Under the pieces are notes generated by a model that was not told where the DNA came from, ran no database searches, and was given only the letters and a program-made list of their open reading frames with translations. Positions 1 through 5,061 of a stretch of DNA of 5,061 nt are shown piece after piece (within the stretch, counting starts at the first letter, position 1; every line of letters begins with the position of its first letter). The DNA comes from a virus. The translations under genes were made by a program, and so were the position numbers. The stretch is taken from positions 1 to 5,061 of the IMG/VR virus record IMGVR_UViG_3300029539_000104; one strand, 5' to 3'.

Positions 1-79
1 CTGAGTCTTCGCGCATTGCCGTTGAGGAGTTCCGAGAAGTTGCTGAAGACCCCTCTCCTTTTAGTGACGATGGGTTTGA
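1..79. repeat. Exact 79-nt terminal redundancy with 4983..5061. This is a circular-genome wrap-around or a tandem unit junction, with a unit length of 4,982 bp.
   Basis: Direct comparison of the two ends of the window shows that they are identical. Confidence 0.9.
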
Positions 80-98
80 TGATATATCTTTATTCTGA
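1..98 (+). CDS. C-terminal end of the Rep ORF. It is the continuation of 3944..5061 across the circular junction, with the stop codon TGA at 96-98.
   Basis: Positions 1-79 are identical to 4983-5061. The reading frame (codons starting at 3, 6, ...) continues the Rep frame and reaches TGA at 96-98. Confidence 0.7.
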   Translation, partial: ESSRIAVEEFREVAEDPSPFSDDGFDDISLF

Positions 99-116
99 TG
101 AAAGGATGGTCACTCA

Positions 117-359
117 ATGAAAGTTACTGTAGTTGGTAAGTCCCGCCGCGCTGGTACTTCTAAACAGGGTAAAGACTATGATTTTACCACTCTCATGGCC
201 GAATATTCGATGCGTGCAAACGATGACAATGACGGTGTGCAGGTTGATAGAATCAATGTCGACGCTCGCATGATGCCTTATGCGCTCATTGTCGTTGGCG
301 CTACGTATGATCTCGACTTTGATCGCAACGGTTATCTTCTCGGAATTGAGGAAGTCTAA
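117..359 (+). CDS. ssDNA-binding protein, filamentous-phage gene V (gpV)-like, 80 aa.
   Basis: Its size of 80 aa is close to the 87 aa of M13 gV. It has an N-terminal motif MKVTVV...AGTSKQGKDY, which resembles M13 gV MIKVEIK...SGVSRQGKPY (recalled, not searched). An AAAGGA Shine-Dalgarno (SD) lies 10 nt upstream. It sits immediately downstream of rep, as in Ff phages. Confidence 0.6.
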   Translation: MKVTVVGKSRRAGTSKQGKDYDFTTLMAEYSMRANDDNDGVQVDRINVDARMMPYALIVVGATYDLDFDRNGYLLGIEEV

Positions 360-395
360 CTTCCTTTGTTCAAACCCAAATTTCATTTCCTATGG

Positions 396-415
396 GAGAG
401 CGGTTCGCCGCTCTC
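396..415 (+). promoter_or_regulatory. Perfect 8-bp hairpin gagagcgg-UUCG-ccgctctc (UUCG tetraloop), 4 nt upstream of the tRNA-like gene.
   Basis: The arm 396-403 is the exact reverse complement of 408-415, and the loop ttcg is at 404-407. No T-run follows it. Confidence 0.6.
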
Positions 416-419
416 ACAT

Positions 420-493
420 GGCGGGGTAGTGCAATGGTCGCATGTCACTCTCTGAAGGTGAAGCTGCTGGTTCGAATCCAGACCCCGCAACCA
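420..493 (+). tRNA. tRNA-like gene with anticodon CUG (Gln), 74 nt including an encoded CCA.
   Basis: Manual cloverleaf, arm by arm:
- Acceptor stem: 420-426 pairs with 483-489, giving 6 bp plus a G1:A72 mismatch.
- U8 is present.
- D-stem: 429-432 pairs with 440-443.
- D-loop: AATGGTC, which contains G18 and G19.
- Anticodon stem: 445-449 pairs with 457-461.
- Anticodon loop: cuCUGaa, with U33 and a purine at position 37.
- Variable loop: 4 nt.
- T-arm: GCTGG-TTCGAAT-CCAGA, i.e. the canonical GGTTCGAATCC.
- Discriminator: A490.
- CCA: 491-493.
The 3' half resembles bacterial tRNA-Gln. Confidence 0.6.
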
Positions 494-494
494 A

Positions 495-513
495 AACGGA
501 CTTGACCTCCGTT
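495..513 (+). other. Small hairpin aacgga-cttgacc-tccgtt immediately 3' of the tRNA. It could be a weak terminator or a processing element.
   Basis: 6-bp perfect stem with 495-500 paired to 508-513 and a 7-nt loop. It is followed by the U-containing tract attcgatttcg. Confidence 0.35.
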
Positions 514-541
514 ATTCGATTTCGCGAAAGGTGGTGGCGAA

Positions 542-1708
542 GTGTATAAGGTTGCGAAGCGCTTCGTCGCCCTTCTCGCGGCTCTGATGGTTTCTCTTTC
601 TTTGTGTACTCCTTGTTTTGCTGGATTCGAAACTGAAGCTGATATGCCATCTTTGGATGATTTCTATAGTCATCATGGTTCGTGGTATGTTTGGCGTAGT
701 GCTACTATTTCTGGCTTCTCTTATTATGAGTTGCTTTGCTCTCCTATCTCTGTTTCTGGCACTTCTTATTCTCTTCCTTATTCGGTTTCTTATTCCACTA
801 ATGCGTGTGATGTATCTTATTTAGCTAATGATTCTGGCAAATCTTATGATTATGCTTGCGCTTTTCCTCTTCCTCTTCGTGGTGCTTCTGGTTATTGGTA
901 TGAACTTCCCTCTTTCCCTATTGGTTCGGGGCTGAAGCTTGATACATGCTCTGTACGTGTTTATTCTACCGCTGCTCAACCTTCTGGAACTTATGGCTTT
1001 TTAACTTCTTCTTTTAGCCGTTCAGACCGTATTCTTTCTTTCGGTAATACTTACGGTTCTTCTTATGGCTCTTCTACTGATACTTTAGATTCGTTTACTT
1101 TTTCATCTCCTTTTTATTCATATCCTTTTGCAATTCGTGAAACTACTTCTTCTTCTGCAAGTGGTTATGTTTTACAGGGTGGTGACAATAATTTTATTAT
1201 TCCTTCGCCTGACTATTCAAGTACCCGTGCTTTGAATCTTGGTGTTACTCGTTATCTCCGTGGCACTAATTCTTTTGTCCCTTATCCGTCTGGATACACT
1301 ATCCCATCTTCTGATATTGGCTTTGTCTTTGTGAAGCAACCTTCTTCTTCTCCTGTTTATTCTGCTTCTGCTTTTGATACTACCGGTTCTTTTGCTTTTT
1401 CTCTTCTTGTTCCCTCTTCTCGTTTGACTGATGTTAAGCTTGGTGACTGGCTTTCCGATTCTCCGGAGGATTTACAAGATGTCATTACTAACGAGTTTGG
1501 CGTTGATTCTGATACCATTAAAGACTCCAAAGATAACTTGAATTCTTGGAATTCTGCTTCCTCTGTCGATTCTGATATTGCTTCCGGTGCTTCTGGTCTT
1601 CTCGGCGGTCTTTTTCAGAATTTAGGCACGTTTCTCTTTTCTGTTTCTCTCCTTTGCTTCGGTGCTGTTGTTCTCCGAATGCTCATTAGAAAGGCGGTTG
1701 ACGGATGA
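542..1708 (+). CDS. pIII-like minor coat / adsorption (receptor-binding) protein, 388 aa, with a GTG start.
   Basis: - The N-terminus MYKVAKRFVALLAALMVSLSLCTPCFA-G is a signal peptide.
- The body is extremely rich in Ser/Tyr/Thr/Gly, of low complexity, and has Cys pairs.
- The C-terminus has a hydrophobic anchor LLGGLFQNLGTFLFSVSLLCFGAVVL followed by RMLIRK.
- An SD aaaggtgg lies upstream of GTG 542.
- This architecture and this position (first of the virion gene block) match pIII of inoviruses. Confidence 0.6.
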   Translation: MYKVAKRFVALLAALMVSLSLCTPCFAGFETEADMPSLDDFYSHHGSWYVWRSATISGFSYYELLCSPISVSGTSYSLPYSVSYSTNACDVSYLANDSGKSYDYACAFPLPLRGASGYWYELPSFPIGSGLKLDTCSVRVYSTAAQPSGTYGFLTSSFSRSDRILSFGNTYGSSYGSSTDTLDSFTFSSPFYSYPFAIRETTSSSASGYVLQGGDNNFIIPSPDYSSTRALNLGVTRYLRGTNSFVPYPSGYTIPSSDIGFVFVKQPSSSPVYSASAFDTTGSFAFSLLVPSSRLTDVKLGDWLSDSPEDLQDVITNEFGVDSDTIKDSKDNLNSWNSASSVDSDIASGASGLLGGLFQNLGTFLFSVSLLCFGAVVLRMLIRKAVDG

Positions 1709-1836
1709 CTTTTCTTGACTTTTTCAAATCAGTTTTCGGCCTTTTCGGTTCTGGTGGTGCTCTCGTCATTGCCGTTGTCGTTTTCCTTGTCGGCCTTGGT
1801 ATTTATAAGTTTGTAAAGGATTGGTTGCCATGGTAG
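1705..1836 (+). CDS. Small virion/membrane protein, 43 aa, a coat-protein candidate: MTFLDFFKSVFGLFGSGGALVIAVVVFLVGLGIYKFVKDWLPW.
   Basis: ATGA overlap with the pIII stop (ATG 1705-1707, TGA 1706-1708). An SD gaaagg lies 10 nt upstream. It has a single TM helix with a basic C-terminus, like signal-less inovirus coat proteins such as Pf3 (44 aa). Confidence 0.5.
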   Translation: MTFLDFFKSVFGLFGSGGALVIAVVVFLVGLGIYKFVKDWLPW

Positions 1837-1997
1837 ATTTTGTTTCGACTCTTGGTGTTGTGACATCGTTTATTGCTAATGTTCTTAACCTTTCTTTTTT
1901 CGGTTTCGGCACTTTTGGAACAGTTGTCCTTATCTTTCTTCTGCTTTCGCTTGTTGGTTTTGTTCTTCGTGGCCTTTGGGATGGAGGTGATAAATAA
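1830..1997 (+). CDS. Small two-TM membrane protein, 55 aa, a minor virion protein candidate analogous to pVI/pVII/pIX.
   Basis: ATG 1830 overlaps the stop TAG 1834-1836 of the previous ORF (ccATGGTAG). An SD aaagga lies 10 nt upstream. It has two hydrophobic segments. It ends in TAA 1995-1997, which shares one base with the next ATG. Confidence 0.45.
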   Translation: MVDFVSTLGVVTSFIANVLNLSFFGFGTFGTVVLIFLLLSLVGFVLRGLWDGGDK

Positions 1998-2608
1998 TGG
2001 AAGTTCCTGCTATCATCAAAACTTGGGTTGATTCTGACGGTGTTACTGTCTACACAGTGCAGTATAAAGACGGTAGTTCTTGCGATATGACTGTTCAGCA
2101 GTATGACTATCTCAAGGCATCCGCGCAGGCTGTCACCGATATGGACGCTAAAGCCGCCGCCGAATCTCCCTCGGATGCTGCTTCTGCTCCTGAGCAACCC
2201 GCGCAGAATATTACCGAATCTCCAGACCTCCGCGACGGCTATGTGCCTCATGAGGGTGATTTACCTTTCGAAGGGAGCTTAACTGCTTATGATGACCGCG
2301 CTGCAGATACTCCGGCTCTGTATGCTAATCTCCCTAACGTCTCTAATAGTTTCACTGCTATTATGGATTGGTTCGGAGATACTTTTTTTATCGAACGTAC
2401 TGAAACGGTGCATAAGTCCGGATATACGTCCGAAAGGTATTCCTATAACAGTTCGACTCAACTCATTCAGCTTCCTTATGAGGAAGATTCCACTACTACG
2501 TCTCAGGTTCTCAACCCGCAAGCTTGCGTTTCTGCTTTGCTTGTTGTCCTTGTCTTCATTACTACTGTTACTTGGATTAAAAACGCGATTTGGGGGCGCA
2601 TGAGCTGA
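1997..2608 (+). CDS. Hypothetical 203-aa protein with a C-terminal TM anchor and an Ala/Ser/Pro/Glu-rich linker. No family was recognised.
   Basis: A strong SD ggaggtga lies 6 nt upstream of ATG 1997. The protein has no signal peptide. Its C-terminus ALLVVLVFITTVTWIKNAIW is hydrophobic. The central segment (about 2140-2290) uses GC-ending codons, unlike the rest of the genome. Confidence 0.55.
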   Translation: MEVPAIIKTWVDSDGVTVYTVQYKDGSSCDMTVQQYDYLKASAQAVTDMDAKAAAESPSDAASAPEQPAQNITESPDLRDGYVPHEGDLPFEGSLTAYDDRAADTPALYANLPNVSNSFTAIMDWFGDTFFIERTETVHKSGYTSERYSYNSSTQLIQLPYEEDSTTTSQVLNPQACVSALLVVLVFITTVTWIKNAIWGRMS

Positions 2609-2721
2609 TGGAAATTCTTCCTTTACAGTATTGTTTCGGTATCTTCTCTATCCCCGAAATTGGCTATTTCATTATCTTCGCTGCTGTTTTCTCTATGTTG
2701 GTTCTCCTGCTCCGTCCGTGA
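2608..2721 (+). CDS. Small single-TM protein, 37 aa: MEILPLQYCFGIFSIPEIGYFIIFAAVFSMLVLLLRP.
   Basis: TGATG overlap with the previous stop (TGA 2606-2608, ATG 2608-2610). It is hydrophobic and of pVII/pIX-like size. Confidence 0.4.
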   Translation: MEILPLQYCFGIFSIPEIGYFIIFAAVFSMLVLLLRP

Positions 2722-2823
2722 CAGGTGCCATAAATATTTTTTATGAAAGGATGATGACTTCAGGGCACTACTGCTTCTATTCTCGCTACGCTGCTTTCCT
2801 TGGTCGGTGAGTTCTTCACTTCG

Positions 2824-2952
2824 ATGATTACTTGGATGGGTCAGCTCATTGACTTTTACGAGTCTCAGCCCATTCTCCTTGTCTTCGTGATTCTCACTAT
2901 CGCTGGCATCGTTCTCCGTGTCCTTCGCCGCTGGATTCCTGGCCGTAGTTAA
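2824..2952 (+). CDS. Candidate major coat protein (pVIII-like, class II, no signal peptide), 42 aa: MITWMGQLIDFYESQPILLVFVILTIAGIVLRVLRRWIPGRS.
   Basis: It has an acidic N-terminus (D, E), a hydrophobic core, and four Arg residues at the C-terminus, which is the typical major-coat charge layout. It is followed directly by the strongest terminator in the genome, as gVIII is in Ff. The start is uncertain: the SD is weak, and the frame is open upstream back to 2758 with no ATG. Confidence 0.45.
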   Translation: MITWMGQLIDFYESQPILLVFVILTIAGIVLRVLRRWIPGRS

Positions 2953-2966
2953 CCGCTGAGAGAAAA

Positions 2967-3008
2967 CGCCGCCGACCATTTTTAATGGTCGGCGACGTTT
3001 TCGCATTT
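2967..3008 (+). terminator. Rho-independent terminator after the virion-protein gene block.
   Basis: A GC-rich stem with 2967-2979 paired to 2985-2997 (10 contiguous bp, gccgccgaccat / atggtcggcgacg) and a 5-nt loop, followed by the T-rich tract TTTTCGCATTT. Confidence 0.65.
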
Positions 3009-3025
3009 AGAAAGGATTATATGTT

Positions 3026-3649
3026 ATGCTTTATGGTATTCTTATCTTTTGCATTTGCTGGCTTTTTGTTTATATCGATAACTATTGCAAAAACCCCTAC
3101 AAACTTGAGGCTGTTGTTGGTTCAAAAGGCTCTGGCAAGTCTCTGTATATGTCTCGTGTTGCTGATAAGTGGCTACGTGCTAATAAGGGGCTTATCTATA
3201 GTAATATGGGTATTGGTTACGAGTTAGAGCCGGAATACTGGAAACAGACCTTTATCCCTGATTCCCTTATTCTTATTGATGAAATAGGCGTTCTGCACTC
3301 TAATCGTGATTTTAAAACTATGCCCCGTGAAGCTGTTGAGTTTTTTAAAATGCAGCGTAAATATCATTTGACAATTATTGTATCGTCTCAGACCATGGAC
3401 TTTGATAAAAAGATACGTGACCTCTGTGACCGCATTTACCTCTGTAACCGCATTGGCTGGTTTTGTCGTCTCACTCCCTATCGCTCTTGTATCGCTATGG
3501 AACATCGCCCCGAGGGAGGGCAAGAACTCGTCAACACGGTGCGCAAGGCGGGGCGTGCAAGGTGGTATACTATCCCAAAGTCCGTGAAGCAGGTGAGCGC
3601 CTTAGAATACGATACAGAGCAGGTTATCAGCAAGACCACCCCGAAGTAA
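3026..3649 (+). CDS. Zot / pI-type phage assembly ATPase (P-loop NTPase), a minimal form of 207 aa.
   Basis: - Walker A: EAVVGSKGSGKS.
- Walker B: SLILIDE.
- The layout parallels M13 pI VYFVTGKLGSGKT...LLVLDE (recalled).
- It has an N-terminal hydrophobic segment ILIFCICWLFVYI.
- An SD aaagga lies 9 nt upstream.
- It has no long periplasmic C-terminal domain. Confidence 0.7.
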   Translation: MLYGILIFCICWLFVYIDNYCKNPYKLEAVVGSKGSGKSLYMSRVADKWLRANKGLIYSNMGIGYELEPEYWKQTFIPDSLILIDEIGVLHSNRDFKTMPREAVEFFKMQRKYHLTIIVSSQTMDFDKKIRDLCDRIYLCNRIGWFCRLTPYRSCIAMEHRPEGGQELVNTVRKAGRARWYTIPKSVKQVSALEYDTEQVISKTTPK

Positions 3650-3700
3650 AAAAAAGTTCTCCCCGTGCCCCCGTAGGGGGTCAGGGGAGTTCTTTTTTTT
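3648..3700. terminator. Long compound hairpin with an A8 tract 5' and a T8 tract 3'. It is a bidirectional rho-independent terminator immediately after pI, and a candidate packaging-signal hairpin.
   Basis: Outer stem ctcccc 3659-3664 paired to ggggag 3684-3689. Inner stem ccccc 3668-3672 paired to ggggg 3676-3680, with a gta loop. A8 (3648-3655) pairs with T8 (3693-3700). In f1/M13 the packaging signal is a terminator-like hairpin just after the last gene. Confidence 0.6.
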
Positions 3701-3759
3701 ACCGGAGCATTCCCGCCGTCTTGTCACGCGATAGCGTCTCCACCGCGTCCCCCGTCCCC

Positions 3760-3778
3760 GCAAGGGCAAAGCCCTTGC
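3760..3778. other. Intergenic hairpin gcaagggc-aaa-gcccttgc, a candidate minus-strand origin element.
   Basis: 8-bp perfect stem with 3760-3767 paired to 3771-3778 and a triloop. It lies in the GC-rich intergenic region. Confidence 0.4.
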
Positions 3779-3819
3779 CCTTCCAAAACAGGCTGGCAGG
3801 GGCTTCCGATATGTAGTGA

Positions 3820-3837
3820 CTGCCGTGACGGCGGCAG
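3820..3837. other. Intergenic hairpin ctgccg-tgacgg-cggcag.
   Basis: 6-bp perfect stem with a 6-nt loop. Confidence 0.4.
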
Positions 3838-3839
3838 CC

Positions 3840-3880
3840 GGTGGGCGTGCGTGTAATACGCCCACCTTTTTAATATTTTC
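3840..3880 (+). other. Hairpin ggtgggcgt-GCGTGTAAT-acgcccacc followed by TTTTTAATATTTTC. It is a terminator-like element and a candidate plus-strand origin (dso) nick region for the Rep_trans Rep.
   Basis: 9-bp perfect stem with 3840-3848 paired to 3858-3866. The loop contains GTGTAATA. pT181 RepC nicks in the loop of its IR-II hairpin at CTCT/AATA (recalled). A T-run follows the stem. Confidence 0.4.
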
Positions 3881-3882
3881 TC

Positions 3883-3911
3883 TTGACAACTTCTTCATAT
3901 TGTGGTAACAT
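3883..3911 (+). promoter_or_regulatory. sigma70-type promoter for rep: -35 TTGACA, a 17-nt spacer, and an extended -10 TGgTAACAT.
   Basis: TTGACA at 3883-3888. TG at 3902-3903. TAACAT at 3906-3911. The predicted TSS is about 3918-3920. An SD aaaggtgg at 3927-3934 precedes ATG 3944. Confidence 0.6.
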
Positions 3912-3917
3912 TTAGCC

Positions 3918-3947
3918 ATGGAAATGAAAGGTGGTTTTCTCACATGA
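3918..3947 (+). CDS. Nine-codon uORF (MEMKGGFLT) whose stop overlaps the rep start (ATGA).
   Basis: ATG 3918. TGA 3945-3947, which overlaps rep ATG 3944-3946. It contains the rep SD. It could be a leader or coupling ORF, or meaningless. Confidence 0.2.
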   Translation: MEMKGGFLT

Positions 3948-5061
3948 AAATGGTTGTTAAACTTGACTATGCTACGTTTGCTTTTGAGCAGGGTTCAATT
4001 TCTATTCCCAAAATCGAAGATGCTCTTTCTCAGTGTGATTTGCATTTTGCGCAGACTTCCAACGCAAGTGAGAATTCCCCTTACAATTCCCCTGCGGGAC
4101 TATTCTTTAAGCCGAATAACGGCGCCGAACAGTCTCCGCACTCTTTACAAGTTTCTGGTCATGGTTGTGAGCTTTTCCGTCCCACATTGCCGCGTCTTGC
4201 GTCACTGATGCAGGAAGGTCACGAATTCGGTCACTTTTCTCGTCTCGACTTTTGTTTTGATGTTGTGATGACCAAAGAACGCTGGCGTCAATATTATCTT
4301 GGTGTTATCTCTGCTTCTGTCGATGAGATGAATCATCCCGAAAAAGCCCGTAAGGTTCGCAAGTTCATGTATCAGGGTTATGGGGATGAGACTACTATTT
4401 ATATCGGTCGAAGAACGTCTTCATATGCTTTCTGCCGTATCTATAATAAATCCCTGCAAGACCCTGATAAAAAGCTCTGTACGGCTTCTGGTGCGCTTCT
4501 GGACTGTCCCGATGATTCCTATATCATTCGTTATGAGATTGAGTTTAAATTTACTTCTCGTGTACGTTCCGGTTCTCGTTCCGTTTATGACCCGTCTCCG
4601 CTTTTCTGGTTTTATTATGAAGACCCTGACAAGCTCTTCGCCTATCTCCGTAAAGTCTGGAATCGTTACGGGAATGATACTATTCTTCCTGATGGCTGGG
4701 AAGATATGCAGTTCGTGACTGATATTGAAGCCCGCAATATTCAGTTTGTTAAGGACTTATTGCATCCCCTTAGTGATGACCTTGCACAAAAGTTTTCCGT
4801 ATCTATCCATACCGTAGAACAGAAAATGTCTTATGTCGCTAATATCTTTGGACACCGTATCATCGATATTCTGCTTTATCGTCCTGAGCTGCTTTTCTTC
4901 GCTTGTTGTAAGTGGGAGCAGTATTATAATGAGCGTCTTCCGTTCTCTCCTCTTGCGTTGACACAGGAAGTTGCACAATTTTCTGAGTCTTCGCGCATTG
5001 CCGTTGAGGAGTTCCGAGAAGTTGCTGAAGACCCCTCTCCTTTTAGTGACGATGGGTTTGA
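3944..5061 (+). CDS. Rolling-circle replication initiator, Rep_trans family (pT181 RepC / CTXphi RstA type). It runs off the window end and continues at 1..98, for about 378 aa in total.
   Basis: - The ORF is open in frame 2 from ATG 3944 to the window end.
- Motifs match recalled pT181 RepC: GHFSRLDFCFDV against GFTRLDLAFDFE (4241-4264).
- YAFCRIYNKS against RFIRIYNKKQ. The Tyr at 4442-4444 corresponds to the catalytic Tyr191 of RepC.
- IRYEIEFK against WRVEIELK.
- The promoter and SD described above lie upstream. Confidence 0.8.
   Translation, partial: MKMVVKLDYATFAFEQGSISIPKIEDALSQCDLHFAQTSNASENSPYNSPAGLFFKPNNGAEQSPHSLQVSGHGCELFRPTLPRLASLMQEGHEFGHFSRLDFCFDVVMTKERWRQYYLGVISASVDEMNHPEKARKVRKFMYQGYGDETTIYIGRRTSSYAFCRIYNKSLQDPDKKLCTASGALLDCPDDSYIIRYEIEFKFTSRVRSGSRSVYDPSPLFWFYYEDPDKLFAYLRKVWNRYGNDTILPDGWEDMQFVTDIEARNIQFVKDLLHPLSDDLAQKFSVSIHTVEQKMSYVANIFGHRIIDILLYRPELLFFACCKWEQYYNERLPFSPLALTQEVAQFSESSRIAVEEFREVAEDPSPFSDDGF
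4983..5061. repeat. Second copy of the 79-nt terminal redundancy (identical to 1..79).
   Basis: Exact identity to the first 79 nt of the window. Confidence 0.9.

Follow-up and report, generated by a model that had tools for sequence, protein, structure and literature searches.

The window analysed here is the whole of a 5,061-nucleotide (nt) stretch of viral DNA (IMG/VR virus record IMGVR_UViG_3300029539_000104, positions 1 to 5,061), and the element in question is its open reading frame (ORF) at 3026–3649, which encodes a P-loop protein of 207 amino acids (aa). As bases 1–79 are identical to bases 4983–5061, the window amounts to one circular genome of 4,982 bp, with every gene on the + strand (Table 1). 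The clade to which it belongs has genomes of ~5.0 kb with a GC content of 45%. In the reading favoured here, to which we give a probability of about 0.8, the phage is a small filamentous member of the Tubulavirales (an order), its hosts are monoderm Clostridia of the Oscillibacter/Oscillospiraceae type, and ORF 3026–3649 is its morphogenesis ATPase.

The ORF encodes a complete Zot/pI-family P-loop NTPase without any domain after the ATPase core. No possible start lies between the preceding stop and position 3026, and the protein opens with a strongly hydrophobic stretch (residues 1–17; Kyte-Doolittle value 2.48 over 17 aa). The AlphaFold2 model, built with 41 homologs, places residues 2–21 in a single N-terminal helix (predicted local distance difference test, pLDDT, ~94), which leads through strand β1 into the Walker A loop and a β-α P-loop core (mean pLDDT 82). 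The hydrophobic character of the helix is conserved among homologs, while its sequence is variable. The hydropathy scan on which all transmembrane calls for this protein are based found no second hydrophobic segment after residue 17. Thus, the initial annotation was right to describe an N-terminal hydrophobic anchor followed by both Walker motifs, as it was in noting the absence of a long C-terminal periplasmic half.

Several comparisons associate the protein with the Zot/pI family. Pfam Zot (PF05707), the profile that had been proposed as a check, is the sole family to exceed its curated threshold (score 25.7 bits, gathering cut-off 20.3 bits; expectation value, E, 9.3e-6), and most homologs carry a precomputed PF05707 annotation. 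Among PHROG families, the protein matches a Zot-like toxin family at 1.9e-9 and “protein I of M13” at 1.4e-3; it should be noted that the PHROG families matching every gene of the window end to end were built from near-identical phages. Among solved structures, Foldseek ranks 2R2A, the N-terminal domain of Neisseria meningitidis Zot, as the best match of the model (E 9.9e-8, TM-scores 0.51/0.55). The genomic context is that of an inovirus: a replication initiator and short structural proteins with a single transmembrane domain accompany the ATPase, and the same context recurs in relatives. A single N-terminal transmembrane segment also falls within the range described by Roux 2019 (PMC6813254), where pI-like proteins were accepted with one or two transmembrane domains at either the N- or the C-terminus.

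Table 1 Coordinates of the genes and other features of the window
Feature	Position	Strand	Evidence or remark
80-aa protein (orf80)	117–359	+	
tRNA, anticodon CUG	420–493	+	ARAGORN; Rfam tRNA 46.2 bits
pIII-like protein, 388 aa, with signal peptide and C-terminal anchor; not a secretin	542–1708	+	sequence; no Pfam match
Small membrane proteins (including orf43, orf55, orf37)	1705–1836, 1830–1997, 2608–2721	+	
203-aa protein (orf203), C-terminally anchored	1997–2608	+	
Shine-Dalgarno sequence of the coat gene, GAAAGGA; then two out-of-frame ATGs and in-frame TGA TGA	2745–2751	+	
Major coat protein gene, 63 codons, directly upstream of the ATPase gene; Shine-Dalgarno-positioned first codon CAG	2761–2952	+	synonymous changes; indels of 3n nt
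Terminator-like hairpin between coat and ATPase genes, 19-nt arms, 95% complementary	2962–3002	+	conserved in relatives
Shine-Dalgarno sequence of the ATPase gene, AGAAAGGA	3009–3016	+	8-nt match to the anti-Shine-Dalgarno complement; aligned spacing 7
Zot/pI-family assembly ATPase gene, 207 aa, complete	3026–3649	+	ORF; Pfam PF05707; PHROG 197; AlphaFold2 model; fold match 2R2A
N-terminal transmembrane helix, aa 2–21 (hydrophobic core aa 1–17), predicted N-out/C-in	3029–3088	+	hydropathy; AlphaFold2
Walker A, GSKGSGKS, aa 32–39	3119–3142	+	G32, K34, G35, G37, K38, S39 invariant in 41 sequences
Walker B, LILIDE, aa 81–86	3266–3283	+	L81, I84, D85, E86 invariant in the 41-sequence alignment
Hairpin directly after the ATPase stop, 27-nt arms, A and T runs on the flanks	3646–3702	.	
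Promoter-like TTGACA-17-TAACAT with upstream TG, ahead of rep	3883–3911	+	consensus match only
Replication initiator (rep), Rep_trans-like, 378 aa	3944–5061, on across the circle junction to base 98	+	Pfam Rep_trans 25.1 bits, below cut-off; PHROG replication initiation 1e-249
12-bp integration core of relatives, GCATCCCCTTAG, inside the 3′ part of rep	4762–4773	+	prophage-end direct repeat in L067; L105 junction

The ATPase family is large and uniform in its N-terminal-anchor layout. A word-indexed search returned 84 clusters at 90% identity, nearly all of them on contigs of 4–6 kb, and one cluster comprises 3,081 member sequences. A profile search of 1.84 billion representatives (50%-identity clusters) yielded 1,621 proteins at E ≤ 1e-3, 551 of which reach E ≤ 1e-10; the best 150 matches are mostly 200–345 aa long. 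A transmembrane segment before Walker A and none later was found in 180 of the 231 proteins examined, and segments in both places in 10. Lys and Arg are more numerous between the transmembrane segment and Walker A than before the segment in 175 of 184 family members, and fewer in none (0/184); because of this excess, the positive-inside rule predicts an N-out/C-in anchor that leaves the ATPase in the cytoplasm.

The stand-alone, N-terminally anchored Zot architecture is not new, having already been described for Firmicutes-associated inoviruses (Roux 2019; Sugimoto 2021), and the initial annotation, which called export of this kind poorly characterised for inoviruses, overstated the case, the arrangement being present in both catalogues. 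Four of the six candidate families of Roux 2019 are associated with monoderm or wall-less hosts (PMC6813254); Sugimoto 2021 recovered 56 inovirus genomes from human gut data and states that a stand-alone Zot domain is encoded by all gut inoviruses targeting Firmicutes; and inoviruses are secreted by Gram-positive Enterocloster (Burckhardt 2023). The present analysis adds the link to Oscillibacter-type hosts, corrects a mis-binned record, supplies topology statistics for the whole family and makes the point that proteins named “ZOT toxin” carry no toxin domain.

Comparison with known systems defines what the protein shares with other assembly ATPases and what it lacks. Like pI/pXI of the Ff phages (M13/f1/fd), it is a Zot/pI P-loop ATPase with Walker A and Walker B and a cytoplasmic-membrane anchor, is encoded after the structural genes and is expected to power extrusion. 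M13 pI, however, is 348 aa long, with Walker A at residue 8, a transmembrane segment at 254–270 and a periplasmic tail of ~75 aa, which contacts the pIV secretin. The order is the opposite in the window protein, whose single transmembrane segment precedes the ATPase core and whose chain stops at residue 207, with neither a second membrane segment nor a periplasmic domain after the core. Nor is there a secretin gene: a Pfam Secretin search of the ORFs on both strands of the 4,982-bp genome gave no match, in agreement with the earlier statement that the genome holds no pIV-like gene. With CTXphi Zot the protein shares a homologous N-terminal ATPase domain, and CTXphi is likewise a phage without a secretin gene of its own. 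CTXphi Zot continues into a transmembrane segment and a periplasmic C-terminal domain with tight-junction activity, and the host secretin EpsD is used. The initial annotation had correctly placed the toxin activity in that C-terminal part, in line with established knowledge; this region is absent from the window protein, which contains nothing beyond the ATPase core. For this reason, the “ZOT toxin” labels on its relatives imply no toxicity.

The resemblance to the Firmicutes gut inoviruses (Clade-1 of Sugimoto, the monoderm families of Roux and the Enterocloster phages) includes small circular gut genomes, an unfused Zot domain, hosts among the Clostridia and the absence of a secretin. The genomes of Sugimoto Clade-1 differ in size and composition (5.6–9.4 kb, 27–41% GC, against ~5.0 kb and 45% GC in the window clade with its Oscillibacter-type hosts). 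Propionibacterium phage B5 (Paulinoviridae), a cultured inovirus of a Gram-positive, monoderm host, also lacks a secretin, and its Orf8 matches Zot at 25.0 bits; Orf8 differs in its length of 308 aa and in having no predicted transmembrane segment.

The host assignment derives from integrated relatives. The decisive case came from a scan of metagenomes: a 50.7-kb human-gut contig, L067, holds a complete prophage whose Zot is 97% identical at the amino acid level and whose nucleotide identity to the window is ~83%. This prophage has a 12-bp direct repeat, GCATCCCCTTAG (773–784 and 5794–5805), at either end, and the flank encodes a protein with an SLH domain as well as an Hsp20 that shows no difference from WP_033121904 of Oscillibacter sp. 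ER4. A second insertion, in L105, uses the same 12-bp core (junction at ~4260–4270) and has a different flank; a shared core with different flanks speaks for real site-specific insertion and against misassembly. The proteins of the L105 flank, looked up by exact sequence, gave no members with a name. In L002, a 13-kb Logan contig containing a whole prophage with a Zot 55% identical to that of the window, the flanking RadA best matches metagenome-assembled genomes (MAGs) of Clostridia.

Four further loci came from a scan of the GTDB genome collection, only one of which (L005) has flanks; the other three are 4–5 kb contigs binned into Clostridia MAGs and lend weak support, given that the binning of small contigs is unreliable. 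L005 (CAVDWO010000002.1, a 95.9-kb contig titled Alistipes onderdonkii), the closest of the genomic matches, has a Zot 83% identical to that of the window, and its phage part, with 47% GC, abuts DNA of 62–65% GC. Among the genes of this DNA are one for a RadA that falls into a 90% cluster named Oscillospiraceae and one, beside that of RsgA, for a Ser/Thr kinase with PASTA domains. A PASTA kinase next to RsgA is an arrangement typical of Firmicutes. The diderm host suggested by the title of the record was rejected on the evidence of these flanks, which evidently belong to a Firmicute contig mis-binned into a Bacteroidota MAG. L067, L105, L005 and L002 together place these relatives of the phage among the inoviruses of monoderm hosts. 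Oscillibacter valericigenes stains Gram-negative but is monoderm, without LPS, and lacks LpxABCD, LptA, OmpH and BamA (PMC11448272), and the sister genus Dysosmobacter is likewise reported to be monoderm without outer-membrane genes (PMC13599835).

The integration core lies within the 3′ part of rep, and the phage encodes no integrase; a host Xer-type or a Rep-mediated route is conceivable. On the host side of the L105 junction the sequence forms a small hairpin (GGGGATATCGCATCCCC). The phage tRNA, considered as an attachment site, was rejected, as integrated copies are cut inside rep at the core and not at the tRNA.

Would a hidden frameshift or sequencing error have truncated the ORF and masked a C-terminal membrane segment and periplasmic domain? 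A 117-aa ORF in another frame (3463–3816) does overlap the 3′ end of the ATPase gene, but its product is Arg-rich and has neither a hydrophobic segment nor a Pfam match. The protein ends at the same place in more than 190 independent contigs, the hairpin following the stop leaves no gap, and homologs end after the same conserved motif, Y-x-T-E-Q-I-I-S-K, located just before the stop. All 84 homolog clusters fall between 116 and 261 aa, the full-length ones at ~205–260 aa, and about 120 close relatives encode the same 201–207 aligned residues. Truncation, which the initial annotation had named as one finding that would overturn its reading, is in our opinion effectively refuted. A different question is whether a P-loop NTPase of this kind serves virion assembly at all, or has some other role, such as DNA translocation, help in replication or a plasmid-type function. 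TM-scores close to that of Zot were also obtained with Foldseek for the packaging ATPase B204 of STIV2, for FlaH and for RecA-like folds, and there are weak Pfam AAA matches below cut-offs. Nevertheless, Zot is both the best fold match and the only Pfam match above its cut-off, the gene order (coat gene, hairpin, ATPase gene) is conserved together with the inovirus gene set, and the membrane anchor fits a site of assembly; we regard a role outside assembly as unlikely.

The envelope of the host is the other point at which an alternative has to be considered. A diderm host, for example one of the Bacteroidota or Negativicutes, could lend the phage a secretin, as EpsD is lent to CTXphi, with contact made through another phage protein. 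Many inoviruses lack a secretin of their own, one relative is recorded in GTDB under the name Alistipes onderdonkii, and an SLH-domain protein like that of the L067 flank could also occur in diderm Firmicutes. Against this stand the Firmicute gene content of the “Alistipes” contig described above and the Hsp20 of the L067 flank, whose identical counterpart belongs to Oscillibacter, a genus without the outer-membrane genes listed above. The GAAAGG-type Shine-Dalgarno (SD) sequences found before nearly every gene of the window also fit the 16S rRNA 3′ tails of the Bacillota type and not those of Bacteroidota. Bacteroidota make little use of SD sequences. Borrowing of a diderm host secretin is very improbable in our estimation. 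The initial annotation had left the choice between export through a monoderm envelope and a host channel undecided, and had held that close homologs confined to secretin-bearing diderm hosts would refute its reading; no such confinement was found, the sole “Alistipes” label being the mis-binned one, and the integrated relatives in Clostridia/Oscillospiraceae contigs favour the monoderm envelope.

Several points weigh against the assignment of the ORF as the assembly ATPase of a phage of Oscillibacter-type hosts. The PF05707 match is modest and spans just residues 72–149, and a sequence search against all Protein Data Bank chains gave nothing significant (best E 1.3). A specific relationship to B5 Orf8 was considered and rejected, the profile comparison being too weak (58% probability). 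What is said of ATPase activity, oligomeric state, topology and partners is prediction for every member of the family. Finally, the host is assigned through metagenomic contigs of relatives that share at most 83% nucleotide identity with the window over the genome, and not through the window itself.

If the assignment is correct, export could proceed as follows. The N-terminal helix would insert N-out/C-in and hold the ATPase on the cytoplasmic side of the single membrane, where it would oligomerise as other FtsK/HerA-type ATPases do. Together with orf43, orf55, orf37, orf203 and the coat protein, it may then drive an ATP-dependent extrusion of single-stranded DNA, during which the DNA-binding protein orf80 would be exchanged for coat subunits. 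The periplasmic half of Ff pI serves to reach the secretin and would be dispensable in a cell without an outer membrane; neither a secretin nor a periplasm-spanning C-terminal half would be needed, because there is no outer membrane to cross.

The assignment would connect a very common inovirus clade of the human and pig gut (~120 near-identical contigs in IMG/VR and ENA) with Oscillibacter-type monoderm hosts. Since the phage is small and abundant and its host genus can be cultivated, it might be used as a model for the exit of filamentous phages from monoderm cells. It would also identify a gene so far named “protein H” or “ZOT toxin” as that of an N-terminally anchored assembly ATPase without a toxin domain. 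The nearest GenBank entries comprise four genomes of “Inovirus sp.” obtained from pig samples, in which the protein is 95–96% identical and labelled just “protein H”. In these nearest public records (MT135292, MT135293, MT135296 and MT135305) only 2–4 genes each are annotated, under microvirus-style names (protein A, C, F, H), so that the tRNA, the coat gene and the genes of the small membrane proteins go unmarked.

With regard to expression signals, the initial annotation had credited every gene with a strong SD at 9–10 nt. An SD of the GAAAGG/GGAGG type does precede seven canonical starts, but at 10–12 nt from the end of AAAGG (aligned spacing 7–9 nt); none was found upstream of the start of orf37 (2608), and the SD at 2745–2751 precedes a CAG codon. 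The extended −10 promoter claimed for rep is present as far as the two hexamers and the upstream TG are concerned, in a GC-rich intergenic region, and is a consensus match only. As evidence on the envelope of the host, SD strength and an extended −10 are weak indicators, and their use for that purpose was overstated.

The CAG codon belongs to a pairing between the phage tRNA and the start of the coat gene, which we judge far more interesting than the ATPase finding. No ATG, GTG or TTG stands at the SD-defined start of the coat gene. Its SD runs into ATGATGA, whose two ATGs are out of frame and stand too near to the SD; two in-frame TGA codons have to be passed before the coat frame opens, and it is CAG 2761 that lies at the spacing used by the other genes. 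Synonymous substitutions and indels in multiples of three place the start of coding at this CAG, which is found at AAAGGR+9 nt in all 110 clade contigs that hold the region. Two conventional starts further downstream were rejected. TTG 2800 is replaced by CAG or CTG in relatives and has no SD, and the frame upstream of it is already coding, as synonymous changes and 3n indels demonstrate; ATG 2824, taken as an SD-directed start, has no SD before it either, and again lies behind a frame that is already coding. Immediately downstream of the coat SD starts a short out-of-frame ORF of 19 codons (2751–2810; ATG ATG ACT ... TGA), which extends into the 5′ end of the coat gene; it might act as a decoy or as an upstream ORF with a regulatory role, and an analogous short ORF occurs in relative L008.

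The tRNA has an encoded CCA, A73 and a G1xA72 mismatch. It is present in 87 of the 88 clade contigs of at least 4.8 kb, and the single exception also lacks the coat gene. Its acceptor stem is identical to that of E. coli tRNA-fMet at positions 2–7 and 66–71, and the initiator elements G2:C71, C3:G70, G4:C69 and A73 are all in place. Positions 1 and 72 are G.A or C.A in the clade, variable between strains and never paired, and two distant relatives have U1:A72. Overall, the phage tRNA is closer to initiator tRNAs, among them the host-type tRNA-fMet from the L105 flank, than to the elongator Met or Gln tRNAs of E. coli (0.61–0.74 identity to the initiators), and compensatory changes affect 14 of its 19 stem pairs. 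Other initiator hallmarks are absent. In place of the three consecutive G:C pairs at the bottom of the anticodon stem, the window tRNA has U:A, C:G, A:U, C:G and U.G, while L006, L140, L186 and L192 keep two of the three; the anticodon is CUG instead of CAU (UUG, CGU, AGU or CUA in others), and the pair A11:U24 is replaced by U11:A24. Judged by these features, the tRNA appears to work like an initiator, being neither a canonical tRNA-fMet nor a normal tRNA-Gln.

The anticodon changes together with the first codon of the coat gene. CUG accompanies CAG in the window clade, in L139 and L140, where the CAG opens the first of two coat paralogs and Zot is ~35% identical to that of the window, and in L192, where CAG stands on both the coat gene and a signal-peptide protein. 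In L006 the anticodon is UUG and the first codon CAA, in L008 they are AGU and ACU, and in L134 and L135 they are CGU and ACG, with an in-frame TTG just upstream in L135. In L186 the anticodon CUA accompanies a UAG, which follows a 9-nt perfect SD at the same spacing and leads into a coat-like ORF. The anticodon thus matches the SD-positioned coat codon in nine genomes from several lineages and for five codon types (CAG, CAA, ACU, ACG and UAG), the homologous start position having been read by eye, since an automated scan for an SD followed by any codon gave too much noise for statistical use. Seven relatives without the tRNA have ATG or GTG at the homologous coat start.

Taken together, these observations point, with reasonable though limited confidence on our part, to a private initiation channel in which the tRNA at 420–493, probably an anticodon-switched derivative of tRNA-fMet, would start the coat gene at the non-AUG codon CAG. 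As a rival account of coat translation, ribosomes could re-initiate at ATG 2824 once the short out-of-frame ORF has been read, and in L135 and L186 use of the tRNA as an elongator after an upstream TTG is possible. A search of the available literature for a natural precedent of such a tRNA/non-AUG pairing found only engineered analogues. Among these is an amber initiator, tRNA-fMet(CUA), which Varshney and RajBhandary reportedly constructed in E. coli in 1990. The engineered tRNAs resemble that of the phage in combining an initiator-type acceptor stem and a non-CAU anticodon with a complementary non-AUG codon at an SD-defined start. They differ in being E. coli laboratory constructs, whereas the phage pairing is natural and conserved and involves a tRNA without the three anticodon-stem G:C pairs. 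If true, the use of a natural, phage-encoded initiator-like tRNA with a non-AUG start, UAG included, in a virion gene would add a new way of controlling phage genes, and the non-AUG start would explain why the coat gene has been missed by gene callers.

Two further observations concern the distant relatives. Tandem coat paralogs occur in L139 (4323–4740), L140 (3775–4205) and L186 (3976–4389), in each case with one paralog starting at ATG and the other at the codon cognate to the tRNA. In L192 (4024–4120), the tRNA gene is followed after 20 nt by GGAGGTG, 5 nt and a CAG that opens a 419-aa protein with a textbook signal peptide, an arrangement which suggests that non-AUG initiation at this codon may extend to a second virion gene.

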